Source: an uncultured virus (IMG/VR IMGVR_UViG_3300030098_002223) (taxonomy: Duplodnaviria; Heunggongvirae; Uroviricota; Caudoviricetes). Taken from it: DNA of 64,000 nucleotides. The notes beneath the pieces were generated by a model. It had not been told where the DNA came from and made no database searches. It saw nothing but the letters and a program-made list of their open reading frames with translations. Shown here piece by piece: positions 8,109 to 62,163 of this stretch (position 1 is its first letter; every line of letters begins with the position of its first letter). Position numbers and translations under genes: made by a program. The stretch lies in IMG/VR virus record IMGVR_UViG_3300030098_002223. One strand, 5' to 3'.

Positions 8109-8369
8109 TCATTTGAACCACAAGTAATATGCGATTACCCCCAAACAAAATAGATTGCCGATTGTATATAAGATTATGGTCTTCATATTTATATCATTCT
8201 TCTTTTTTATTACTTTCTTCGGGGTCTTTACTATAAAATGAGGGATACTTTTCCAACACTCATCACAAAGATAAGCTCTAAGGTGAGGTTCTTCACTCGT
8301 GTAGTGGGTTAAACATCTATTACATTTATGCCACAATACTTTATAGTATGGTGGTTTAACTGAATTCAC
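8109..8369 (-). CDS. Zn-finger protein with C-terminal TM helix
   Basis: CNRC...CDEC plus hydrophobic C-terminus. Confidence 0.6.
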   Translation of the reverse strand: MNSVKPPYYKVLWHKCNRCLTHYTSEEPHLRAYLCDECWKSIPHFIVKTPKKVIKKKNDINMKTIILYTIGNLFCLGVIAYYLWFK

Positions 8370-8955
8370 CTGCCACTTCCAAATATTTTTTAGTAGCCAT
8401 TATGATAGGTTGTTGTAATTCTTGAGGTATGAAATCTAATCCATCCATACCCATATCTATATCTTGATAGAATATTTCTAAGTATGCACTAAAGTTATCA
8501 GTTATGTAGTGATAACCATTAGCCACATCTTCATCATAATCTCTTATAAAATTAATAATTTGATATGCTCTACCCAAAGCTCGTGCATGTATTTCACATC
8601 GTGGGTCACAGCCTAATATCTTTGACATCATCATACCAACTGACTCAGCTGAGCCTTTGCAGTAATCTAACATAGATACAACTGAATGTTCTTTCTTTAC
8701 CATATCTTGATACATACTTATATGGAAGTCTGAGAGCCATTCACCTTCAAACTGATACTTGTCACTCACTTCATAGAATTGTTCTATAACTTCTCTCCAT
8801 TGTTTGAAATCATGTAATGTCTTCTCACCCTCAACCATTTCATCACATACTCTAAGGTATGCGTATAGTTTGTATATATCTTCTTTGATATCATCTGGCC
8901 ACGCACTCATACACTCAAAGAATGTAGTGCTGTATTCTTCCATTATCTCTTTCAT
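8356..8955 (-). CDS. Compact phytoene/squalene synthase (CrtB-like) head-to-head prenyltransferase
   Basis: YSTTF, LYAYLRVCDEMVE (first Asp-rich motif), YC..SAESVG, ALGRAYQIINFIRDYDED (second motif). Confidence 0.8.
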   Translation of the reverse strand: MKEIMEEYSTTFFECMSAWPDDIKEDIYKLYAYLRVCDEMVEGEKTLHDFKQWREVIEQFYEVSDKYQFEGEWLSDFHISMYQDMVKKEHSVVSMLDYCKGSAESVGMMMSKILGCDPRCEIHARALGRAYQIINFIRDYDEDVANGYHYITDNFSAYLEIFYQDIDMGMDGLDFIPQELQQPIIMATKKYLEVAGEFS

Positions 8956-11568: not shown

Positions 11569-11658
11569 TCAACCGAATAGTATAAGCATCACCATCCATA
11601 TCATTATAAAGAAAGCGAATAGCATATACCACTCAGCTTCATTAACGTCTCGACTCAT
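11569..11658 (-). CDS. 29-aa single-pass membrane peptide
   Basis: manual translation MSRDVNEAEWYMLFAFFIMIWMVMLILFG; ATGA overlap with the vWA stop. Confidence 0.55.
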   Translation of the reverse strand: MSRDVNEAEWYMLFAFFIMIWMVMLILFG

Positions 11659-13766
11659 ACTTTAATTACCTTCCTGATAATCTTACTCACCTTAGTTGGT
11701 AATTCTGATGTCTCTTCACACATGATATAATTACTAAACATATCTTTCATGATACGCTCACGTGCACCCGAGATACCTATTTGTATTACATTCCAACCTT
11801 GAGTCTCAATATGTCTGACACACTTTTTAGTATGTGGCACACTGAGATGAAACCTGTATTGGTCTGCTGATGGTTCACCATCTGAAATAACAATCATAAG
11901 TTTGTTACTACCTATGGAGGGTGACTCAGCTTTGACTCTCTCAGCTGATGCGAGGATAGCCATACCATCTCTGTTTTCACTACGTGCTCTCATCGCACCC
12001 ATAGCTTTGATATCACTTTGATATGTAGGTGACCAATACACTGACATATTAGTTTCACCTTTGTTACCCCAATCGTAACCGTCAGCTGTGTGACCAAACA
12101 CCCATAAGTTGAGAGCTTGATTATCCTTGAGTGATTCACGTAAAGCAATAGCAGTTTCACGTGCTTTCCTCATCTTCCATGTTCCCATACTACCGGACTC
12201 ATCAATTAAGAGACATACATCTAATGGTTTATCTTCATCAATAATTACATTCTTGAATAAGTCGGTTCGACCGAGAGGTATTTTATGTAGCATACGCTTA
12301 TCTAACTTACCTCTTCGTTGGTTGCGAATAGTATTTACACGAGTGTCACCGTATAAGTTTATCTTACGTTTGAGTTGACCGATAGCTGACTTCATATTCT
12401 TTTCAGCATTATCATACTCATCTCTCGCCCACTCAGCTGAAGCTTTCTGATTACGCCATGTAACCTTACCACCCTGTTTCAAACCGAGAGCACGAGCTGT
12501 GTCCCAACTCTCTTCGGAGTAGTCACTGTCAGCTAATTCTTCTATCTCATCATTTAGTGTGTCTGAAATAGTGTCTCTGTCCAAACTGTAATCAGCGAGT
12601 TCCGAAGCGAACTTTTCTAAAGCTCGTGATAATTTCTCTTTACGGGCATATCTGTCACCACGTTCAGCTTCATCACGTTCTTGTTTTATCAGCCTCTCTT
12701 TGATACGGTCTATGTCTTTGTCTGACATATCATCAGCACCTTCACCCCAATCTTCTAAGATATCTTTTAATCTTTCATCAGCACGTCGAAGTATTTCTTC
12801 TTCGTCGGTGTCTTCATGTTTCTTAGCTTCTTCTTTAGCGAGTTGATTCATATAACAATATATAGAATCTATAGCCATAAAAGTTGAATGTCTATCAGTT
12901 AGTGCATCCTTCAACGCACGAGCAAAGAACTGAATGTGTTTAGCATGTTTCTTTTTACGTTCGGCTGAGATAGATGTAGGATATCTTACCATAGCTAATA
13001 AAGTATTCATTATATCGGCAATAGGATTACCGTTCATCTCATCTATCTTATGACCATGTTTACCAAAGAAATGTTCTTTGACTTTCTCAATATACATAAT
13101 ATATCCGGCATGAGTCTTAGCTAACTGAGATTCAATATACTCATCTTCTATAATGTTAGCGATGTTATGTAGTAATCTTTCCTGTGAAGGATTTAAAATA
13201 TTTTCATAAGCATAGTTCCTTTCCCACTTTGTTAGTGGTTTAGTGTGAACTAAGTGTAATTTTTCATGAATTGAGAGACCAGCTAATACATCCAACTTGT
13301 CATCATTACTCTCAATAAGAGAACCATCTACGTAGATAGTTCCATTCCTCATATTAGAATAATTCTTTGTATCAGTTGCGAAATGTAATGAGTGTTTAAC
13401 GTTTGGGTCTACTACTTTACAAAGAGAATCCAAATGTCTTTTATGTTTGAGCATACGAGCTGATGAGCTTGTAGACTGAGACCAACTACCCCATGAAGTA
13501 GCTCCACCACCTGACCAATATGAACTACCACCCCATGTGAATCCGGAACCTCTGTTCCAAAGGTCACCGTGTGCTGAGACAGTAGGTGCAGGTGAACTAT
13601 ATGTCTTTGCTATTGTTGGACTGACGAATGGGTCTACTGTGGTATAACTGTTGCCACAATCTTTACAGTTGCCATGACCGTCGGCATCAGTCCAATCGTC
13701 ACACGCATAACAAAAGTCATTGTCGCTGTCCTCAGTCCATTCATCTATTGAATCGCCGTAATCCAT
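11655..13766 (-). CDS. vWA-domain protein (CobT/NorD-like) with N-terminal Zn finger and HExxH motif
   Basis: MIDAS DESGSM...ISDGEP, HEKLH...NIIEDEYIE, CYAC..CKDC; partner of the adjacent MoxR. Confidence 0.85.
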   Translation of the reverse strand: MDYGDSIDEWTEDSDNDFCYACDDWTDADGHGNCKDCGNSYTTVDPFVSPTIAKTYSSPAPTVSAHGDLWNRGSGFTWGGSSYWSGGGATSWGSWSQSTSSSARMLKHKRHLDSLCKVVDPNVKHSLHFATDTKNYSNMRNGTIYVDGSLIESNDDKLDVLAGLSIHEKLHLVHTKPLTKWERNYAYENILNPSQERLLHNIANIIEDEYIESQLAKTHAGYIMYIEKVKEHFFGKHGHKIDEMNGNPIADIMNTLLAMVRYPTSISAERKKKHAKHIQFFARALKDALTDRHSTFMAIDSIYCYMNQLAKEEAKKHEDTDEEEILRRADERLKDILEDWGEGADDMSDKDIDRIKERLIKQERDEAERGDRYARKEKLSRALEKFASELADYSLDRDTISDTLNDEIEELADSDYSEESWDTARALGLKQGGKVTWRNQKASAEWARDEYDNAEKNMKSAIGQLKRKINLYGDTRVNTIRNQRRGKLDKRMLHKIPLGRTDLFKNVIIDEDKPLDVCLLIDESGSMGTWKMRKARETAIALRESLKDNQALNLWVFGHTADGYDWGNKGETNMSVYWSPTYQSDIKAMGAMRARSENRDGMAILASAERVKAESPSIGSNKLMIVISDGEPSADQYRFHLSVPHTKKCVRHIETQGWNVIQIGISGARERIMKDMFSNYIMCEETSELPTKVSKIIRKVIKV

Positions 13767-14131
13767 TCATCTACCTCACTTACTAAATCCTTGTCTTCGT
13801 TGGTGAACTTATACTCAAAACATTTGAGACTTCTCTTAGCTGAACCAACAACACATTTATAAATAAACATATCTTCATTACTAACTAAGCCTTCGGCTAT
13901 CTCTCTTATTTCGTTAATACTCATAGTTGGTTTATTTGGAATGAGAATATCCTCATCTTGTATTAATCTACGTTTGTATGCACCTACGTGTCTACCATTG
14001 ACCTCAGTCTCGGGAAACACATCTTTGATTATCTTTCCTATCATTGTAGGTTTATAACCATTCAGTATAAGGAACTTAGCCAACTGATGCCAATATGTAT
14101 GCTTTCTACGTAATAGTTTTTTCTTAACCAT
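13745..14131 (-). CDS. hypothetical, possible HTH DNA-binding protein
   Basis: basic helical N-terminus; sits between MoxR and vWA. Confidence 0.55.
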   Translation of the reverse strand: MVKKKLLRRKHTYWHQLAKFLILNGYKPTMIGKIIKDVFPETEVNGRHVGAYKRRLIQDEDILIPNKPTMSINEIREIAEGLVSNEDMFIYKCVVGSAKRSLKCFEYKFTNEDKDLVSEVDEWITAIQ

Positions 14132-15310
14132 TTATTCACCCATTGATTGAATAACCTGTATGATACGAACTCTCTCAGTATCGTCACCACCCTGAACAGG
14201 GTAGAACGGTAAGCACGTATGCTTTAGTGCATCGACCAAAGGCATTCCATCAACAACTAACTCAGCTGATGCTAAACACATACGTGTTGAAACAGCAGTA
14301 TTGAGTTCGTCTGAAGCATATAGGTCACGCACTCTCTTAGCAAAGTCTACAATCTTATCAGCATCGTAGTCACTAAGCTGAGGGTTTCTGTTTTGTATCA
14401 GTTCCTTTTCTTTCTGTGGAGGTAAATACTCTAATTCGTATATACCACCTGTGAATCTATCTTTCCATGCTCGGTCTAAATCATGAGATGCACCGAGATA
14501 CTCTCTACCTATGTTAGCAGTAGCGTAGAAGAACGCACCTTTACTAACTGAGACAGTATCAGCATCCTCACTCTCATCGAGAGCTAAATACTTTTGACCA
14601 TCTAATACCGGCATGAGAATGTTAGCTAAGTCACCTGTTCGGTCACGTGTAACCTCATCTAACATAATGAATGAATCACCTTGTATTGCATTGACGAACC
14701 GAGATGGTTTGAACCATGTCCCTGCTTCTTTGTCATACTTAGTGTCACCCAATAACTTAGCTGAGGGATTCATAGTGTCACCGAAGTTAAAACTATAAAA
14801 GTCCTTTGCAGTGATATCAGCTAATATCTTACCGAGACTACTCTTACCACAACCTGATGGGCCTGTGATGAGAATGTTCTTACCTCTAAATATGTTTCTC
14901 AACATAGTATAGAATGTCATGTCATCAGCGAATTTAAACTCTTCGGGCACATTAACTGACCCTCTCAGTTTAGACATCACTGTGTCTTTCTCTACTTCTA
15001 CCACTTCTTCGGGGGTAGGTTCCTCTTCTAACGTGGGACTGTCTCGGTCGAATAGACCATCGAGTCCTCCATGTCGGTCTTCTGTTTCCATTGTATCTCC
15101 AGATATATCATCCTTTATAAGCGTTTCGGTTGTTGAACTGAGAAGTTTATCCTCATCTGAACCATGATATAATCCTTTCTTCCATCTTCTCACTCCACGC
15201 TTGTCTTCACTCACGTGCCAATACCTACCGTCTCCACCTACACGTTCATGGTGTAGAGGGAAGTCAGTAGCTGACTCAGTTGGTGATGGTCTCGTTCTTC
15301 GTCTACTCAT
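14132..15310 (-). CDS. MoxR/CbbQ/CobS-like AAA+ ATPase
   Basis: GPSGCGKS, IMLDE, ATANIG.EY.G..DLDRAWKDRF, VSTR. Confidence 0.9.
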   Translation of the reverse strand: MSRRRTRPSPTESATDFPLHHERVGGDGRYWHVSEDKRGVRRWKKGLYHGSDEDKLLSSTTETLIKDDISGDTMETEDRHGGLDGLFDRDSPTLEEEPTPEEVVEVEKDTVMSKLRGSVNVPEEFKFADDMTFYTMLRNIFRGKNILITGPSGCGKSSLGKILADITAKDFYSFNFGDTMNPSAKLLGDTKYDKEAGTWFKPSRFVNAIQGDSFIMLDEVTRDRTGDLANILMPVLDGQKYLALDESEDADTVSVSKGAFFYATANIGREYLGASHDLDRAWKDRFTGGIYELEYLPPQKEKELIQNRNPQLSDYDADKIVDFAKRVRDLYASDELNTAVSTRMCLASAELVVDGMPLVDALKHTCLPFYPVQGGDDTERVRIIQVIQSMGE

Positions 15311-15767: not shown

Positions 15768-15985
15768 GGTAAGACCTCTCTGAACTGAGGGAAGGACTCA
15801 AAGTTATGTGGATATAATCCATTGTTCTTTACATTCCTAAAGTATGTCTCAGTTGCACGTATCTTACGAGCTTTGATTGCGGAACCGTCTCGGTTCGGGG
15901 TTGCACTTAACAGCTGTTGTAGCTGTTTGGCAGTCATGCTTTTTAGTTGTATTGCTAATGTGTCGATGTCGGTCATAGTCATCAC
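15764..15985 (-). CDS. hypothetical protein, first gene of the middle operon
   Basis: preceded by GGAAACGCTTATATAG promoter (~16005-16020). Confidence 0.6.
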   Translation of the reverse strand: MMTMTDIDTLAIQLKSMTAKQLQQLLSATPNRDGSAIKARKIRATETYFRNVKNNGLYPHNFESFPQFREVLP

Positions 15986-16159
15986 TCATACGATTAGGGA
16001 GCCACTATATAAGCGTTTCCCCTCTTGAACTGAGAGCCCAGCACGAAAAATATACTGAGAGAAAAAAAACGGGGGCTTTTTCATGCAAAACTATTTATAG
16101 TTCACCTTCTCTATATTATACTATATTAAATCATAGCTCAGTTATGCAATAACTAAGAC

Positions 16160-16576
16160 CTAAAGTAAGGAGCTTAGTTGAGCCTAACTGAGTTATGCTC
16201 TATTACTTAGTAGAGCATGGTTAGTGGAGCCTTCTTATAATATAGGGCTAAACACTACTTACTATACTTTCTTCGAACGAACACTGTTCGCATACTGAAC
16301 CCGAACTGGTTCCGGTTTGGAGGATGAGCTTTAAAGCTTTCGAACCAACCTAAGCTCCACTAAGCATTTTCTCATTGTGGCCTACCGAAGTGCTCAGTCG
16401 AGCCCTAGCCCAACTGAGACAATTTCTCATCGGGGCTGTCCGTTTCTTAATTGAGCCATAATGCTCTACTGAGACAGTTTCTCATCTGGCCCTACCGTAT
16501 CTTAGTAGAGTCATGGAGCCCAACTGAGAAGAGTTTCTCACCCGGCCCTATCGAGCTGAGGGGGGTTTAATTGAGC
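16160..16576. repeat. iteron-like array: 11-bp GCYCNACTRAG in alternating orientation, ~55-bp period
   Basis: ACTRAG cores at 16359, 16413, 16468, 16523, each followed by TTTCTCA; inverted copies at 16393, 16446, 16501. Confidence 0.8.
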
Positions 16577-16633
16577 TGAGTCCACCCGAGTGGAAAAATT
16601 TCCCCTTGAGTGGAAAAAAATTTTTGTAAAAAA

Positions 16634-16722
16634 AAGATGAGCCCCTGACTTATATACCACCGGTGGTAAAGCATTCCTTCCTCGATGTTTTCGCATTCGA
16701 TAACGGAAGTCAAGGGGCGTCA
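16634..16722 (-). ncRNA. putative small structured RNA module 1
   Basis: GCCCCuUGACUU...AAGUCAGGGGC closing stem, internal hairpins, then AUCUU and a U-tract. Confidence 0.5.
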
Positions 16723-16723
16723 A

Positions 16724-16876
16724 TGTAAGGTGGGTAGGAGGATTTAATGTATACCTCCAATGGGTTTATGCCACTACATAGTAGAACCCATACCAGTTTC
16801 GCATCCCTCCGGCAGTTGCCTCTCGGTTTGCTCAATCCTGTGCCTTAGTTCGTGGCGAACTTGTTCGGCCATACCC
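16724..16876 (-). ncRNA. putative structured RNA module 2 (~150 nt)
   Basis: GGGUA/UACCC closure; internal UGGcCGAAC/GUUCGCCA, AUGGGUU/AACCCAU and GGAGG/CCUCC helices; ACCUUACA tail. Confidence 0.6.
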
Positions 16877-16962
16877 GATAAGGAAGAGCTACTTCCTTAA
16901 GTATAAGGTGGGGAGGAATCGCCTCCCCTACGTGTTTGCTTGTTAACCGCTGTGTTCAGCGT

Positions 16963-17295
16963 TTACTTCAAGAGTCCAGCTTTCTTCATAGCTTTCTTCA
17001 AATCGGCTTCTGACATCTTACCAGATGCAAGAGCAGAAACGACTGAATCAACAGAAGGAGCTTTACCTGTTGCTCTCCTTTCGGATTGTAGTTGATGTGT
17101 TCTTGACGCAACCATAGATGCTGTCTTCTCGTTTGTGGAGATGACATCACATATTGCTACAAGGCAATCATACTTTACTCCGGTTGGATATCTACCTGAT
17201 TCTCCAACACCGGTAAATCCTAATGAGTCCAATAAAGAACTCACGAGCTTTTCATCCTTTGGAGCCCAAAGGTAATCCATCTTCGCTTTAGTCAT
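16963..17295 (-). CDS. hypothetical early protein
   Basis: leaderless-type promoter directly upstream (AAGCTTAAATAG...TGGTATAGT-ATG). Confidence 0.7.
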   Translation of the reverse strand: MTKAKMDYLWAPKDEKLVSSLLDSLGFTGVGESGRYPTGVKYDCLVAICDVISTNEKTASMVASRTHQLQSERRATGKAPSVDSVVSALASGKMSEADLKKAMKKAGLLK

Positions 17296-17324
17296 ACTAT
17301 ACCAATGAGTGTGCCTATTTAAGC

Positions 17325-17561
17325 TTATCCCCTGCTGACTATTTGTCTTAGTTCTAAGTTCTCAAAGACTTCTGGGTTAGACAAACGAATCTCACGAGCG
17401 AGTTCCATGTGTCTTCCTCTGCTACCTGTTCCGACAGGAATCATTTCTTTGTATAAACCATACTTACCGTATGGAGTCGTGCCGATTTCTACGAAGTAGT
17501 CGACCTCCTTGCTTCCATTCTTCCAAGGAAGATTGGTCTTAGTCTGAGTTGCTTGGCTCAT
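17325..17561 (-). CDS. hypothetical early protein
   Basis: operator-BRE-TATA promoter directly upstream. Confidence 0.7.
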   Translation of the reverse strand: MSQATQTKTNLPWKNGSKEVDYFVEIGTTPYGKYGLYKEMIPVGTGSRGRHMELAREIRLSNPEVFENLELRQIVSRG

Positions 17562-17613
17562 GTAATACCAAGAGGGAGTCCCTATATAAAGCTTTTTTCA
17601 CACAAGTGGAAAA
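17562..17613 (-). promoter_or_regulatory. early promoter with CAC-N4-GTG operator
   Basis: TTTTCCACTTGTGTGAAAAAAGCTTTATATAG...TGGTATTAC-ATG. Confidence 0.8.
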
Positions 17614-17614
17614 A

Positions 17615-17755
17615 TAAGATGCGACTTCACCAATGTGGTATATACTTTGAAACAAGTCACATTGGGAGCGGTCGCCACAGGGTAACGTGTTGTTAACGAA
17701 CAGAGGTTACCCATCAGGGTGTGACCTGCCACCAGACAAAAGGATATCCTTCACG
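17615..17755 (-). ncRNA. putative structured RNA module 3
   Basis: GGGUAAC/GUUACCC helix, GCGAC..CCAAUGUG/CACAUUGG..GUCGC helix, AUCUUA tail. Confidence 0.5.
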
Positions 17756-18010
17756 TAAGGTGGGCGTAAACAAGATAAAGAGAATTACTTCATAGTTTCG
17801 ACGAGGAAGTATATAACAGGGACTAAGTGAGGCAAAAGGTGATACATAATTTTAGCTACACGTCGTTAATCAACTAAGATGCGCATCGACCGGAAAGGGA
17901 TTGGTCAGCACTTGTTCAGCTTCAGTTTGTTATTGCTTATCGTCTACTTGCGTATGGTCTATTCTTGTCTTGGAACTCAGGTCACGTGTTAAGCACGTGC
18001 CTTAACTGTA
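17756..18010 (-). ncRNA. putative promoter-driven ncRNA module 4 (~250 nt)
   Basis: own TATA promoter at ~18030-18042 with no ATG at the expected TSS; AGACAAGA/UCUUGUUU long-range stem; ends CCCACCUUAC. Confidence 0.55.
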
Positions 18011-18029
18011 ATATGAGATAGGGGTGTCC

Positions 18030-18266
18030 CTATATAAGCTTTACCCCCATACTCTTAATCTCACTGACATACACGTCACCAAGTTCAAACTCACCATAGG
18101 TGTAGTCTGACTTAACAGCACAGAACCATCGAGCGTGAGGATTCTTTGCTTCGTTCTCAGGAGCTTGGTATTTTTTTAATACTCTCCATTCAAAGCCACG
18201 TGGGCCAGTCCAGACCTCATAAGGGTCATCAGTTTTGCGAGTCTTACCACATAAGTTTTTGCTCAT
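18030..18266 (-). CDS. hypothetical early protein (78 aa)
   Basis: start corrected to MSKNLCG after the early promoter. Confidence 0.7.
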   Translation of the reverse strand: MSKNLCGKTRKTDDPYEVWTGPRGFEWRVLKKYQAPENEAKNPHARWFCAVKSDYTYGEFELGDVYVSEIKSMGVKLI

Positions 18267-18317
18267 ATTATACCAACGAGTGTGTCTATATAAAGGTTTT
18301 TTCACTCTTGTGGAAAA
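18267..18317 (-). promoter_or_regulatory. early promoter with CAC-N4-GTG operator
   Basis: TTTTCCACAAGAGTGAAAAAACCTTTATATAG...TGGTATAAT-ATG. Confidence 0.8.
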
Positions 18318-18437
18318 GCGGGGGAGAGGCCCTACTCCCCCTTGAGGTGTCCGAAAAACAAACGAGCTATTTACTGGCCTTTTTGATAATCTTATTAGTT
18401 TGTTTCTTCCAACTGCGTTTGAGTGGTTTGTCGTAGC

Positions 18438-18554
18438 TCACAGGTTGCACCCACAACAGGGAGCATCTTCACACCCACAGAGGACAATATAGTCCCCTGC
18501 GCTGTCAATACCAGAGATGACCATGTCATCTAAAATATCTAAGATGCTTTTCAC
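18438..18554 (-). CDS. Cys-rich microprotein with CEDAPCCGC motif
   Basis: manual translation from GTG; GTGA overlaps on both sides. Confidence 0.5.
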   Translation of the reverse strand: MKSILDILDDMVISGIDSAGDYIVLCGCEDAPCCGCNL

Positions 18555-18694
18555 TTTCTCACATCCTCAGCCAATCCCAAACGAATTGCTGTTAGTTGGT
18601 CCAATACTCCAGAATCAACTTGATTCTTTTGCATGGTTCTGCGTGCTACTCTTCGGAAACGGTGGGCGTTTCTCATGTCTTGGATTTTACTCAT
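18551..18694 (-). CDS. hypothetical microprotein (47 aa)
   Basis: manual translation MSKIQDMRNAHRF...; GGAG SD. Confidence 0.5.
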   Translation of the reverse strand: MSKIQDMRNAHRFRRVARRTMQKNQVDSGVLDQLTAIRLGLAEDVRK

Positions 18695-18695
18695 A

Positions 18696-18845
18696 TTACT
18701 CCATTGAACAGGCCTTTATAAAGGTTTCTCTGTCAAAGCGTGGGTTGTGCTCGGCGCACATTCCGGCGAAGTCTCGGACCATGTTAAGGTCTGCGTCATG
18801 CTTGGCTAATATTTGGGCGATAGCCCTAAAGTGTTTTCTACTCAT
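18696..18845 (-). CDS. small early protein (49 aa, NPRFDRxxF type)
   Basis: start corrected to MSRKHF after the early promoter. Confidence 0.65.
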   Translation of the reverse strand: MSRKHFRAIAQILAKHDADLNMVRDFAGMCAEHNPRFDRETFIKACSME

Positions 18846-18896
18846 AATATACCAACGGGTAGGGCTATATAAAGGTTTTTTCACGCAAGTGGAAAA
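18846..18896 (-). promoter_or_regulatory. early promoter with CAC-N4-GTG operator
   Basis: TTTTCCACTTGCGTGAAAAAACCTTTATATAG...TGGTATATT-ATG. Confidence 0.8.
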
Positions 18897-18935
18897 AGGG
18901 AGCAGGGGAAAACAATAAAACCCTGCTCTTGCTAG

Positions 18936-19061
18936 TATAAGGTCGCCCAGCTGCCCCACCACCTAGGGGTGGCCGACTCACTGGGCTGGGGTTGCGTCGC
19001 TTCGTTTAACGCTCGGGCGGGCTTATGTCACTGGCCCTTCGCCATCACTTGTCAGGCGACC
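18936..19061 (-). ncRNA. putative GC-rich structured RNA module 5 (~120 nt)
   Basis: GGUCGCC/GGCGACC terminal stem, internal GGGC/GCCC and CCACC/GGUGG helices, ACCUUAUA end. Confidence 0.6.
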
Positions 19062-19067
19062 CCTGTT

Positions 19068-19171
19068 GTTATCCCATTTAATAGAGAGTTGCTTTTTAGG
19101 CTTACAATCTAACTTGCCCTTTCCGTTGGGTGCACCTACTCCTACGGCCACATCTTACAGTCTGGGATAAC
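19068..19171 (-). ncRNA. putative structured RNA module 6 (~105 nt)
   Basis: perfect 9-bp GUUAUCCCA/UGGGAUAAC closure. Confidence 0.5.
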
Positions 19172-19180
19172 TCACGGAAT

Positions 19181-19279
19181 CTAAAGATTTTTTTCCATTT
19201 CTTTGCGTATTCTTCTTAGTGCTTTTGTATTGGCGTATATCTGTTTTAAAGATAAATGCGCCCACGGGTGTTTTGCCAT
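19181..19279 (-). CDS. basic microprotein (32 aa)
   Basis: MAKHPWAHL... directly after a TATA..TGGTATAGT promoter. Confidence 0.55.
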   Translation of the reverse strand: MAKHPWAHLSLKQIYANTKALRRIRKEMEKNL

Positions 19280-19315
19280 ACTATACCATAGAGTGACCCT
19301 ATATAAGGGTTTCTC

Positions 19316-19438
19316 TCAGTCTCCTGTCCAGAATGTTGCGAACATCTCACCTTCGCAATCTTCACACAGTCCGCCGAATAGTTCGACCTCATCAAGCCCG
19401 CAGTCCTCGCAACTGCCAAATGGTTCTCCTGTTCTCAT
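19316..19438 (-). CDS. Zn-finger microprotein (40 aa)
   Basis: CEDC...CEDC; directly after the early promoter. Confidence 0.6.
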   Translation of the reverse strand: MRTGEPFGSCEDCGLDEVELFGGLCEDCEGEMFATFWTGD

Positions 19439-19490
19439 AATATACCAACTGAGAGTGTCTATATAAAGGTTTTTTCACTTGAGTGGAAAA
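19439..19490 (-). promoter_or_regulatory. early promoter with CAC-N4-GTG operator
   Basis: TTTTCCACTCAAGTGAAAAAACCTTTATATAG...TGGTATATT-ATG. Confidence 0.8.
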
Positions 19491-19493
19491 GTT

Positions 19494-19537
19494 TTTCTCA
19501 CTTTCTCACCCACGCGGGTTTCTCACCCACGCGGGTT
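19494..19537. repeat. short tandem repeat TTTCTCACCCACGCGGG x2 plus a partial TTTCTCAC
   Basis: direct reading. Confidence 0.8.
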
Positions 19538-19890
19538 AAATCCCTCGTTTTGAGGGCCTTTATAGCTTTAGTGCTTCTGCGTATACTTCAGTAGGTAGAA
19601 TTACTTTGCAGGTATCTTGATTTAACAATTTATACCTTAGTGCTCTCACTACTGCGATTTTCGTTTTTAAATCCATTTTGCTTTACCTCCATTTTTGGGT
19701 TTAGGCTGAGGTGGCCGGAGCCACCCCATACCCCCCGTTAAAGGTCCTTAATGCTCGTGCATCTGGTCAATGATATCATGGACTATGTCAAGCATATAAC
19801 TACGGGTTATGACGTTGTCATGTCCGTATCTATTCTTTAACATTAGTTTCCAATCATCATCAGAAATTGTTATTTCGAATTTCATTTATT

Positions 19891-19998
19891 TCACCTCCAT
19901 TCCCAATTACAATCCCAACATAAGAAATCGTTGGTCATCCTAAAACGGTATAATACCGTTTGTTTCTTGCAGTGTTTGCAGTTTTTTGGTTCTTTCAT
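19891..19998 (-). CDS. Zn-finger microprotein (35 aa)
   Basis: CKHC...CWDC; GAGGT SD. Confidence 0.55.
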   Translation of the reverse strand: MKEPKNCKHCKKQTVLYRFRMTNDFLCWDCNWEWR

Positions 19999-20297
19999 TG
20001 TTTTACCTCTTTTTTTGTTAATTCGTAATTTTCGTATACGTATCCGTCGGCTTTCATTTCTTTACCTTCTTCTATTGCATCATCTATTTTTTTAGTTAGT
20101 TGTTGTAATCTTTCAATTACTTCTAAACCATATTTTCTAAGTTGGTGACCTTTCATTTCATCACCTTTGAAATCTGTGATTTCACTTAGATATTTTACAT
20201 GGGTTCTTAATTCCCAAAATGCATTTGCTTCATGTCTGTATTGGTCTTTAGACATTGGCTGACTTGTTTCGGCTCTTATCATATGTGTTCTTATCAT
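19995..20297 (-). CDS. hypothetical protein
   Basis: start moved downstream of the UCCG hairpin (MIRTH). Confidence 0.6.
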   Translation of the reverse strand: MIRTHMIRAETSQPMSKDQYRHEANAFWELRTHVKYLSEITDFKGDEMKGHQLRKYGLEVIERLQQLTKKIDDAIEEGKEMKADGYVYENYELTKKEVKQ

Positions 20298-59600: not shown

Positions 59601-62163
59601 ACCAAATAGATTGGGATATGAACTTTTTGGTTCTCCTTATGCTAGTGGTACAGTGGGTTCATTTTATTATGACCCTGCTGTAGGTAATAATCAATATCCT
59701 GTCACAGGTGGTAAAGATGTAACAACAAAGATATGTATGGGAACTGGTTCACAAAATAATTTTATGTCTACTGATGGATTAACACAAAAAGGATTTATAC
59801 AAGTTAATATATCAGATTCAGGAAGTACTACTGCTATAACTGATGTTACACAGGATGACCCTGCTGTAGTAACTGCCAATTCACATGGTTTTAGTAATGG
59901 TGATAAGGTGGGTATAGTTGATGTAGTTGGAATGACGGAATTAAATGGAAATACATATATTGTCGCAAATAAAACAGCAAATACATTTGAATTAACTGGA
60001 GTAGATTCATCTGGTTATTCTGCTTATACTTCTGGAGGAATTGTAAGTTTAACTTGGGATAATTATTACCAAAACTGGGGTCAAAAAGAAAACATATTAT
60101 GTTCTACTAAAGTTGTAGATGTACCTCAGGGTGGTAACGATTTAGCAACAAATCAACTCCGTTTAAGTGATACAACTGTAATTAACCCCTACAATAAAAA
60201 CGAACAATATATTTTATTTTCTTATGGATTTACGTATTCTGCTGCTAATTATAAGATATTAACATTACAAGGTGGTAAAGCTGGTATAGGTGATGATGGT
60301 TTGGTTACTTTCAATGAAAATGTCACTACTGGAACTTCTGGACAACCTATAGGTCAAGAAACTCAACTTTCATACTTATATTTATCTCCTTATAAATATT
60401 GGATTAATCTAAATGTTAAAGGAGACCAGAATTATAAACCACGTGCCTATTCAGGAGTTGCCCTAGTTAATAATAACATGTCAGGAACTAGCACTTCACC
60501 ATCAACTATAACTGGAACTACTTACAATGAGGCTACCTATACATGGAAAAATGGTTTAGTACAAACAAGGGGTAAATCTGCTACATCAGATAATGAGTGG
60601 AATTTTTTATTAGACCCTGAAGGTGGTACCGCTATAACTCTTAATAAAGATTGGGGTTATGGGATGTATGATACTGAGACTAAAAAAGGTGGTTATATAA
60701 GTTATTTAAGTCCTACGTTAGATTCTTACAATTACATGTCTATTGGAACCTTAATAACTGATGCAACTGTACAGGAAAATGGTAGTTTTAATTTAATGCT
60801 ACGCCAACTACCAAGTGGTTATACTACCGAAATTAAACTTATAGGTGATGAATATGATTCTACAAATAAAGACCAGTATAAACCAACTTTTATATTTGAA
60901 TATGGTGACGCCCCACCTTTTATTAATAATTTTAATGTTAAACCTGCTGTTGATTTATTAGAAAAAGATGTTAATTTATATGAACTAACTACTGAAAATT
61001 TAAATGCAGTTAAATTCAATTGGAGTATAGGTGATGATGATATATGGTATAAAATGATACATATAGATAAAGATGGATACATAGAAAATAAATATCAACA
61101 TGCTAAATTATGGATTCCTTGTAATGAAGAACCACCAAATCTAACTACAGCCCCTGCTATTAATTGGTATAATAAAATAGATAATACTAGTGGTACTGCT
61201 ACTGTGGGTGCTAACGTTAGAAGCTTTATTGATGGTATACAAGGTTATTCTCCACAAATAAGTGGTAATGCAGGAGGTACAGCTTCTATTAGAGTACCAT
61301 ACCGAACTCAAAAAACTATAACTGGAATTACAAAGGCTAATCCTGCCGTAGTAACTGCTACTTCGCATGGTTTTAGTAATGGTGATGAAGTAGATATAAG
61401 CGGTGTGGTTGGAATGACGCAAGTAAATGGAAATACATATACTGTCGCAAATAAAACAGCAAATACATTTGAATTATCTGGAATAGATTCAACTGGTTAT
61501 TCTACTTATACTTCTGGAGGAATTGTATATTTAAACAATAGTAATAGTGCCTTTAATGGTTTATCTGAATTTACTTTTGTAGTGCATGTGACTTTTGACG
61601 CTAGTGAAAAAGGTAGTAATACGATAATATTAGGTCAAGGACTACCGGGAGCTGGAGTTCTACTAAAGAAAAACGCTAACGATTGTATAATTTTTGAACA
61701 TGACCATGGTGTAGGTCCTGATTCTTGTACTGGTTCTAAAGTAGTTAATTGTGACGGAAAGACTCCATATGCAATTGCAGTCACTTATAAATACCAGAGT
61801 GAAGCAGGTCCAGATGTCCAATTGTTTGTTGATGGTACGTTAGATGCATATATAACAGACGCTCAATCTGCCCCTGACACAACTGACCATTTTGAATTGG
61901 GGTGGTATATTGCTACACTTCCTACCGGTTGGAATTATTTCCAAGGAAGGATTGAAGAATTTGTATTATGGGATAAACACTTTATAGTTACTGATAATGA
62001 TGAATATATTTATAATACCGCAGATTTAACGGATTTAACATCGTCAAAAACAAATACATGGTCTGCAAGAATGTTTGCTTATGACTATCATAACATTAGA
62101 GGTAGTACATATAAAGAGGTAGCTTCTAGTAAAAATATTTCATGGAGGACTACGCCAGTATGA
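56605..62163 (+). CDS. Large tail-tip/receptor-binding protein with two PAVVT..HGFSNGD repeats and C-terminal LamG
   Basis: follows TMP; repeats and LamG motifs visible. Confidence 0.75.
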   Translation: MPSTNLKVKPNRFYVEQPITVGQTLFDGHGDFSNKKDTFYNVRSGNNSNYIVLSGSVDSSDHIARGKYSLMDGYMRTYTSSMNLDDSDGSIPTLQLFALHNHYDISEGGMNFARTTIAGTITATSGSATITGVGTDFDGTTGDFKEYFYYGTYQGGAKVWIGPVGSREQYEVLSIASDTSLTLTSNYTGTTTSTTQLQKDDIMGADVTSFVSSYTQPSLNFEENFDGLDAKLSSVTEYRREGANAVVKNGNPFVNCADEEWWYFVKADASRKYMAPVGQKKVKQLMEDHAWYPAAAMNTYEARAEAGGGGTYTSAAVSTYGTPISRQMNNPNAPGVLSDGDLLINSYTREGAAARGFGAGRMYLSKLEDTYYRILKHDGSFTGYGISLSEDRVRRVIKFDSQQAFNPDPENTVNTTNNNTIFDKLYTSFSFENPFTATTEVPIVNSTIELQSDVVKSGANAARIYHLWDYSPDNEDVQKYLGRDNSLNSQTAYMAKYNLPYPITQDMSLDRLGDRRTYLPYVSMDMNISKLQPSVLYNLQDYAGGSTSITGNMINDPSVLYSGSDFQAANWGNGSTTRKKAMTFLRSVVVTFSNYKPLDSHTCLEDFLQYGFDNAYGTSQNRESIVGGVTFNRLGMDGADIENEFIYAQALPIVKEDSTLSYNEQWYNSLTNRGFGLAKIVSGSGAGKMQQMIMKPANINNTITATNSDTPRVVKIPMNQFFNMKFYIDSEARQGTTINSRNPYSGFPASSNGVTMRCVFETDTVSEDSDSQDLYTDMPYLDVNFSVSGGNANSGASTGGTTPSFGMGDYFLDTHDVTAMYPKHMIIWVQNYRFVSSTETEFAYGDNQILDTADGAAIEAEVYIDDIKGVDFYKDLNNLTVKDNTPSTLIFPQGETVDSPLRYLENGSIDLTSFNAGTTSASVNANTTIQNYSPATYWSIGLDSKLDLPVSGSSTARRGYFLISDFYSAAAEQVDTIVPDLYSGATLSLVDSTQVGGGRPNRLGYELFGSPYASGTVGSFYYDPAVGNNQYPVTGGKDVTTKICMGTGSQNNFMSTDGLTQKGFIQVNISDSGSTTAITDVTQDDPAVVTANSHGFSNGDKVGIVDVVGMTELNGNTYIVANKTANTFELTGVDSSGYSAYTSGGIVSLTWDNYYQNWGQKENILCSTKVVDVPQGGNDLATNQLRLSDTTVINPYNKNEQYILFSYGFTYSAANYKILTLQGGKAGIGDDGLVTFNENVTTGTSGQPIGQETQLSYLYLSPYKYWINLNVKGDQNYKPRAYSGVALVNNNMSGTSTSPSTITGTTYNEATYTWKNGLVQTRGKSATSDNEWNFLLDPEGGTAITLNKDWGYGMYDTETKKGGYISYLSPTLDSYNYMSIGTLITDATVQENGSFNLMLRQLPSGYTTEIKLIGDEYDSTNKDQYKPTFIFEYGDAPPFINNFNVKPAVDLLEKDVNLYELTTENLNAVKFNWSIGDDDIWYKMIHIDKDGYIENKYQHAKLWIPCNEEPPNLTTAPAINWYNKIDNTSGTATVGANVRSFIDGIQGYSPQISGNAGGTASIRVPYRTQKTITGITKANPAVVTATSHGFSNGDEVDISGVVGMTQVNGNTYTVANKTANTFELSGIDSTGYSTYTSGGIVYLNNSNSAFNGLSEFTFVVHVTFDASEKGSNTIILGQGLPGAGVLLKKNANDCIIFEHDHGVGPDSCTGSKVVNCDGKTPYAIAVTYKYQSEAGPDVQLFVDGTLDAYITDAQSAPDTTDHFELGWYIATLPTGWNYFQGRIEEFVLWDKHFIVTDNDEYIYNTADLTDLTSSKTNTWSARMFAYDYHNIRGSTYKEVASSKNISWRTTPV

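Follow-up and report, generated by a model that had tools for sequence, protein, structure and literature searches.

Conserved structured RNAs tiled among the microgenes of an uncultured head-tailed virus include a manA RNA and candidates for self-association

Some ornate RNAs carried by viruses and phages are of obscure function and self-associate by kissing loops: OLE, ROOL and GOLLD, as described by Kretsch et al. (PMC12286853), and the manA RNAs, whose cages are the subject of a preprint (10.64898/2026.07.01.735769). According to the first of these sources, switching between palindromes has been used as evidence for intermolecular kissing loops in OLE and GOLLD; the preprint reports that manA RNAs form, in vitro and via kissing loops, decamers and a pentamer-based, RNA-only cage of 60 molecules. 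Published members of the manA family come from marine metagenomes, T4-like cyanophages and two gamma-proteobacteria; lying mostly in 5′ untranslated regions (UTRs), the motif was put forward as a riboswitch candidate (Weinberg et al. 2010, PMC2864571), and it has been without a known function since 2010. Here we describe a cassette of structured RNAs, one of them a manA RNA and the others designated M1, M2, M3, M4b and M7, which lies on the minus strand at 16.6-19.2 kb of a 64,000-nucleotide (nt) stretch of DNA, hereafter the window, from the uncultured virus IMGVR_UViG_3300030098_002223.

The genes of this cassette are short leaderless open reading frames (ORFs) that alternate with conserved non-coding modules. 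The original prediction, made from the letters of the stretch, had placed a series of compact structured RNAs on the minus strand, and all of these modules are present, at or near the positions it gave them. Relatives were retrieved with the protein of 110 amino acids (aa) encoded at 16963-17295, which is 67-100% identical in 14 loci; the 14 viral contigs obtained in this way aligned to the whole cassette at about 70-85% identity. Each module was aligned with its distinct homologues, a consensus structure was computed with RNAalifold and its pairs were counted, both in the alignment as it stands and after 500 column shuffles or after sliding the partners by 1-3 columns. M1 (16 sequences) has 27 pairs, with 97.4% of the cells paired and 15 pairs changed on both sides; the corresponding values are 30 pairs, 99.0% and 8 for M2 (14 sequences), 38 pairs, 99.1% and 17 for M3 together with M4b (13 sequences), 16 pairs, 97.7% and 7 for M7 (8 sequences), and 45 pairs, 96.6% and 21 for manA (13 sequences). 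The observed covariation score was reached by 0 of 500 shuffles in each of the five alignments, and sliding the partners brought pairing down to 26-58%. These figures are generous, since the alignments used for counting had also yielded the structures and since their sequences are not independent of one another; in spite of this, closing stems and junction helices clearly contain many double changes. The main helices of M3 were moreover recovered when column pairs were scanned separately in 58 distinct sequences. That several different structured and conserved RNAs are interleaved with the microgenes, as had been proposed, is thus supported by covariation in all five alignments tested, and the expectation that helices would be kept in relatives held, with compensatory changes in 8-16 related viral contigs, for all modules but the hairpin at 16910-16928 (16903-16935), which occurs in three near-identical loci only, too alike for its conservation to be judged.

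Stability adds little to this picture. The stems had been expected to be more stable than shuffled sequence, and they are, but modestly, with single-sequence fold z-scores that extend from -0.45 to -3.3: -1.15 for M1, -1.73 for M2, -1.96 for M7, -2.38 for the manA core, -3.14 for M4b, -3.05 for the hairpin at 16879-16899, -3.29 for that at 16903-16935, and -0.45 for 17750-18015. For this reason the claim rests on conservation and covariation, and not on stability alone. The third codon phase (wobble position) receives a share of 0.27-0.42 of the substitutions in the modules, versus 0.53-0.65 in the ORFs. The ORF list holds no ORF of at least 30 aa on the minus strand inside M3. A 37-aa ORF on the plus strand of M3 (17879-17992) was considered and rejected: its ATG lies inside a palindrome and is lost in ACGGCCGU variants, its frame is broken by indels and it is devoid of codon periodicity. 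At the level of sequence comparison, M1, M2, M3, M4b, M7 and manA are therefore shown to be conserved, folded and non-coding RNAs. The GC richness ascribed to the intergenic DNA is real but mild (0.485-0.55, versus about 0.41-0.44).

One of the modules, for which the original prediction had recognised no identity, is in fact a catalogued RNA. What had been taken for two separate units, 16732-16876 and the hairpin 16879-16899, is a single full-length manA RNA (RF01745) at 16727-16899, which reaches 67.3 bits where the gathering score is 55.2 (E = 5.9e-15) and covers model positions 1-192 of 192. It is the sole Rfam family found at gathering thresholds in the whole window, and manA is above the cut-off in 11 of the 14 related loci as well. 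No Rfam family was matched by M1, M2, M3, M4b or M7, and when 15900-19900 was searched permissively (E up to 10), only two chance matches, both sub-threshold, were added to manA. OLE, ROOL and GOLLD gave no match either in that search or, at the gathering score, in 34 related loci; of these, the 20 loci besides the 14 viral relatives, among them 14 metagenome loci of M3, gave no Rfam match at all. The proposal of an undescribed system thus stands for four to five uncatalogued RNA families and falls for one module. Its other negative statement, that no tRNA, CRISPR repeat or rRNA identity is to be seen, agrees with our searches, in which ARAGORN reported no tRNA or tmRNA gene in the window and nothing resembling a CRISPR repeat, a tRNA or an rRNA turned up.

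Regarding the function of these RNAs, we consider it probable on balance, though without much assurance, that the cassette is a set of stand-alone RNA units which act in trans as self-associating folded particles, and not as switches of downstream genes. Each unit would begin at a TATA box or right after a microgene and would end at a U-run that abuts the next promoter. In the first of the three blocks, a TATA box is followed by a 99-nt ORF or leader, M1, M2, and a hairpin with a U5 run; in the second, a TATA box is followed by M3, M4b and a U5 run; in the third, the 110-aa gene is followed by the short hairpin, manA, M7 and a U8 run (16628-16635). The alternative in which the modules belong to the microgene mRNAs and act in cis, as riboswitch-like sensors, 3′-UTR stabilisers or terminators that tune the neighbouring small genes, draws on the first proposal of manA as a 5′-UTR riboswitch candidate (PMC2864571), on the location of M1-M2 and manA-M7 directly downstream of ORFs, with no TATA box in between and hence probably co-transcribed with them, and on the terminator-like hairpins with U-runs in which units end. 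We regard it as unlikely. A riboswitch or cis-acting leader lies upstream of an ORF in the same transcript, and no module stands ahead of a gene in its own unit: manA is followed by M7, the U8 run and then a repeat region, and its unit contains no ORF, so that this copy departs from the 5′-UTR position of the family (a contextual trait that lies outside the covariance model). M3 has its own TATA box, contains no ORF and is followed by none before the U-run, which it directly precedes in some homologues. Furthermore, the modules vary independently of the flanking genes, M4b being absent in two loci and M7 or M1/M2 in others, and four-way and three-way junctions go far beyond the needs of a terminator. 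The modules are also present or absent independently of one another among the relatives.

M3 is the module for which the case is best developed. The original prediction had rightly given this unit a promoter of its own, but had placed it at about 17760-18010; its real bounds are 17717-18006, closed by a long-range stem of 8 base pairs (bp) that joins 17978-17985 with 17721-17728. A pattern of three conserved M3 words retrieved 101 metagenome stretches, from which 18 chance matches were removed to leave 83 homologues; L039 and L046, chance matches too, were likewise dropped before any count of M3. M3 is widespread in the ocean: these 83 metagenome loci hold 56 distinct cores, and metagenome and viral loci together give 58, which are 45-99.6% identical. 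A TATA-like octamer occurs within 130 nt upstream in 55 of the 55 homologues with enough upstream DNA. The M4b core follows 48 of the 56 distinct metagenome homologues, whereas 7 of them have a U-run and the next promoter directly after M3, the arrangement seen in L008 and L011, from which M4b is absent. M3 is also the part of the 4 kb around the cassette (16000-20000) that was found in contigs of two marine RNA libraries: each of two metatranscriptome runs (X1 and X2) holds one contig on this stretch, 17717-18006 and 17717-17997, with no differences, and no contig elsewhere on it, which says nothing on the expression or abundance of M1, M2, manA and M7. The 5′ end lies about 24 nt past the TATA box, and the 3′ end falls one base beyond the closing stem, at the point of termination in L008 and L011, a weak hint that these are the ends of the RNA. 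In a contig of run X3, from a relative about 90% identical to the window, three short segments are swapped for unrelated letters of similar length (17614-17772, 18553-18635 and 18960-18982); one of the three swaps takes in M4b, in whose place stand 135 other letters, and this points to an exchange of modules.

At a fixed offset, as the opening of the loop closed by the helix 17887-17890 with 17862-17865, M3 carries an 8-nt word that is a Watson-Crick palindrome in 56 of the 58 distinct cores, and in all 58 when G-U pairs are allowed, under 14 different spellings. Shuffled M3 loops are palindromic at this place in only 263 of 58,000 cases, and an ordinary hairpin of the same RNA, taken for comparison, is so in 27 of the 58. 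These proportions show, as far as sequence comparison can, that the palindrome is under selection. An 8-mer of this kind is unable to self-pair within one chain, so that its partner must be a second molecule, unless the symmetry is read as DNA; the word recurred within about 1 kb in none of 56 loci. In our proposal, M3 would pair with a second M3 through this word, as a symmetric kissing loop. A second palindrome, of 6 nt (AGCGCU, UUCGAA, AUCGAU or CGGCCG), occurs further along the loop in 30 of the 58 cores, which are all members of the more distant branch (L051, L052, L055 and L088 are examples); an RNA with two symmetric sites could form chains or rings.

The other way out of this symmetry is that the signals act as DNA, in the form of operator palindromes or of replication-origin or packaging elements, with the RNA structures as by-products. 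The cassette does have repeat arrays at both edges, with a 55-nt unit at 16366-16553 and a 17-mer present twice near 19497-19535; a palindrome keeps its symmetry in DNA; and palindromes of the form TTTTCCAC-N4-GTGAAAA stand ahead of promoters, placed between a U-run and the next TATA box. The latter occupy six sites in the window, that is, 12 matches on the two strands versus 0.62 expected, a number that 0 of 100 shuffles reached, and they could be repressor operators or parts of terminators. For the modules themselves we find a role as DNA highly improbable: fourteen spellings of the M3 word would require as many matching proteins, G-U pairs and compensatory changes in helices that are long-range or nested suit RNA and not duplex DNA, and the M3 sequence is present in RNA libraries.

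Self-association as RNA, which is best supported for M3, may extend to two other modules. For manA the argument goes by analogy, since pentamer-based, RNA-only cages are reported in vitro for members of other origin. For M7 it is tentative: a hairpin that is palindromic through its tip, with an apical CCGG, GCGC or GGCC, could provide the contact. A pattern scan for M7 yielded 11 stretches, which represent 9 distinct sequences including that of the window, and the hairpin is palindromic in all 9, under 5 spellings, in what is a small sample.

M2 offers a contact of another type. The unit had been delimited as 18941-19061 and closed by a GGUCGCC/GGCGACC stem; it is indeed structured, but that stem is lost in relatives, and the conserved closing helix joins 19059-19063 with 18988-18992 and is followed by a 3′ hairpin. 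At the tip of one arm (19040-19058), CUGA, a 3-nt spacer CAA and GUGAUG sit on a 4-bp stem, and only two positions of this element vary among the 14 sequences. In the CUGA/GUGAUG arrangement, tandem sheared G-A pairs can form together with a U-U pair, and the layout of the arm fits what we take to be the archaeal D′/C′ K-loop consensus; M2 may thus be a site for the archaeal K-turn protein L7Ae, in addition to any contact between the RNAs. In contrast to archaeal box C′/D′ K-loops, M2 has neither terminal C and D boxes nor guide regions, and its binding of L7Ae is only putative; the alignment displays an internal D′/C′-like pair only, and no Rfam snoRNA or sRNA matches it. The internal loop of M4b was considered as a K-turn and set aside, as its sequence, as we read it, does not fit the layout of a K-turn.

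The original prediction had supposed that the RNAs, transcribed from the earliest promoters, might serve as decoys against host defence or in a takeover of translation. In the decoy or sponge alternative the RNAs would capture host factors, for instance with the K-loop of M2 titrating L7Ae from the assembly of ribosomes, box C/D and H/ACA particles or RNase P, or with RNAs that distract defence. An all-but-invariant K-loop-like element at a conserved stem tip in 14 of 14 M2 copies and the presence of M3 sequence in RNA libraries suit such a role, which is also compatible with self-association, as an oligomer could itself be a decoy. We nevertheless hold it to be improbable as the primary explanation: the K-loop motif occurs at chance frequency, searches found no CRISPR repeat and no tRNA-like or rRNA-like element, and nothing in this analysis links the cassette to defence or translation. 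Self-association and not a decoy role is what the M3 palindrome, the palindromic hairpin of M7 and the published in-vitro cages of manA indicate.

The head-to-tail tiling of units, most of them closed by terminal stems, and the cloverleaf-like outline of the 77-nt four-way junction of M2 suggest yet another possibility, in which the modules would be processing substrates or guide RNAs (tRNA-like, box C/D, H/ACA-like or ribozymes) cut from long precursors in the manner of the stable RNAs of the T4 tRNA cluster. The search results make this very unlikely, as ARAGORN found 0 tRNA genes in the window, no Rfam family besides manA matches even at E up to 10, and M2, as read from its alignment, has the internal D′/C′-like pair only, with no terminal C/D boxes and no ACA box.

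Several observations weigh against the interpretation of the cassette as self-associating RNAs of an archaeal virus. The M3 palindrome is symmetric as DNA too, and a G-U pair is needed in 2 of the 58 copies only. The 5′ hairpin of M3 was tried as a second palindromic contact and rejected, as in its commonest variants the AUC loop caps a stem of 8 bp. For M1, M2 and M3, the z-scores of single-sequence folds are weak. The bare K-loop motif is found 3 times in the window, where 2.36 are expected by chance. The M3 contigs show neither the strand nor the true ends of the RNA, their ends may mark strain divergence, and both runs come from one study. The manA cages were built in vitro by other members of the family, according to the preprint (10.64898/2026.07.01.735769). 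Finally, protein searches yielded no host name: tblastn with the polymerase gave matches only 22-23% identical (polymerases of cyanophages, a Salinibacter phage and haloarchaeal viruses), the capsid protein search gave no match, and the 927 relatives returned by a large protein search all lacked an informative name. A blastn search of the cassette against GenBank phages gave no match.

Dimers or oligomers in the cell, binding of L7Ae and any role in infection are what we infer from the features above. One may go further and imagine that marine archaeal viruses possess an exchangeable set of short RNA genes whose products form particles in the infected cell, made of RNA only or decorated with L7Ae: dimers of M3 would arise by a strain-specific palindrome, a self-recognition code like the dimerisation site of retroviruses, M7 and manA would add homotypic contacts, and the assemblies would sequester host factors or organise the infection. 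This extension is doubtful, although we deem it possible. If true, natural RNA quaternary assemblies would enter the archaeal virosphere, and manA, an orphan since 2010, would gain a trans-acting role. Already the occurrence of manA as a stand-alone unit, in a virus whose transcription signals are archaeal, speaks against a riboswitch and widens the known host range of the family. The cassette makes the in-cell viral use of self-assembling RNAs directly testable with short transcripts, and M1, M2, M3, M4b and M7 are candidate new families for Rfam. In three papers on magroviruses, a search limited to terms turned up no mention of non-coding RNA.

The features of the cassette are collected in Table 1.

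Table 1. Coordinates of the RNA modules, genes and signals of the cassette within the window (ORF, open reading frame).
Feature	Coordinates	Strand	Remarks
TATA box of the M1-M2 unit	19300-19307	minus	21 nt ahead of the ATG at 19279; geometry as in five other promoters
32-codon ORF or non-coding leader ahead of M1	19181-19279	minus	From the ORF list; normal leaderless promoter
M1, structured RNA	19068-19171	minus	Closing stem 19166-19171 with 19068-19073
M2, four-way junction and 3′ hairpin	18945-19063	minus	After M1, few bases between
Candidate K-loop (possible L7Ae site)	19040-19058	minus	4-bp stem closing CUGA-CAA-GUGAUG
Terminator-like hairpin then U5 run, end of the M1-M2 unit	18893-18928	minus	18900-18907 with 18921-18928; fold z = -3.27
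Four microgenes	18030-18848 (18696-18848, 18551-18694, 18438-18554, 18030-18266)	minus	Excess of wobble-position substitutions
Microgene TATA boxes	18866-18873, 18715-18722, 18287-18294	minus	20 nt to the ATG
M3 TATA box	18031-18038	minus	About 24 nt ahead of the 5′ end of the RNA-library contig
M3, RNA unit (about 290 nt) that has a promoter of its own and lacks an ORF	17717-18006	minus	Long-range closing stem 17978-17985 with 17721-17728
M3 8-nt self-complementary word, candidate symmetric kissing-loop site	17879-17886	minus	Loop closed by 17887-17890 with 17862-17865
M4b, optional two-hairpin module after M3	17621-17712	minus	Ended by U5 run 17610-17614
78-aa gene	17325-17561	minus	Wobble share 0.60; no Pfam match; upstream of manA
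110-aa gene	16963-17295	minus	Wobble share 0.53; no Pfam match; upstream of manA
Short GC hairpin between the 110-aa gene and manA	16903-16935	minus	Fold z = -3.29
manA RNA (Rfam RF01745), full length	16727-16899	minus	67.3 bits
M7, three-way junction directly after manA	16639-16722	minus	Ended by U8 run 16628-16635
M7 fully palindromic hairpin	16656-16667	minus	5 spellings in 9 distinct copies
TTTTCCAC-N4-GTGAAAA sites	16599-16616, 17595-17612, 18299-18316, 18878-18895, 19472-19489, 61593-61610		

Regarding the ORFs of the cassette, the 32-codon frame ahead of M1 has a phase-3 share of 0.36, that is, no wobble enrichment, 0.35 substitutions per site and many gaps and indels in relatives; its coding capacity is doubtful on these grounds, and it may be a non-coding leader. 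In the microgene block (18030-18848) no Pfam family reached its curated cut-off. In two ORFs the wobble excess falls in a frame shifted with respect to the first guess, and the substitution pattern favours a 38-codon ORF starting with GTG at 18438-18554, Cys-rich as we read it, over a 44-codon ATG ORF at 18395-18529.

The window belongs to a head-tailed virus, with Pfam matches to a family B DNA polymerase, large terminase, portal, HK97-type capsid protein and tail proteins. Pfam also detects a squalene/phytoene-synthase-like gene and an AAA ATPase (CbbQ/MoxR type) adjoining a VWA-domain protein, at 8356-8955 and 11655-15310. In keeping with the archaeal virus of the original prediction, the promoters are of the archaeal type: TTTATA(T/A)A stands exactly 20-21 nt ahead of the ATG in five promoters of the cassette, which leaves no space for a leader. 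Such a distance between TATA box and start codon is that of archaeal leaderless transcription, and this geometry suggests an archaeal, magrovirus-like host. Just past the U8 run that ends M7, a unit of 55-56 nt occurs in four tandem copies at 16366-16553 (and 16173-16512), each with what we read as a short TGAGA...TTTCTCA inverted repeat; these repeats resemble iterons or operator arrays and are possibly an origin or control region. At the opposite edge of the cassette, a 17-nt word beginning TTTCTCAC is found twice in tandem at 19497-19535. It has the same TTTCTCA core as the 55-nt repeats, so that the cassette is bracketed by related repeats.

Compared with the systems described so far, the manA RNA of this virus matches the whole covariance model of the family above its gathering score, and its helices covary in relatives. 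Against the members published by Weinberg et al. (PMC2864571), it differs in belonging to a virus with archaeal-type promoters and in its surroundings, being preceded by a gene and followed by another RNA and a terminator. One of the closest arrangements is the wcaG-manA-abiF cluster of the T4-like cyanophage S-CREM1 (PMC9964418), which likewise gathers several structured RNAs, manA among them, within about 800 nt of the genome of a marine virus. The partner RNAs of that cluster are others (wcaG and abiF were not found here by the Rfam search), and host domain and promoter type differ. With respect to OLE, ROOL and GOLLD, the modules M1, M2, M3, M4b and M7 are shorter (84-290 nt), have no tRNA island nearby, and their assembly is proposed from sequence. 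M3 nevertheless has in common with OLE and GOLLD, as these are portrayed by Kretsch et al., a loop word that stays self-complementary while its letters change.

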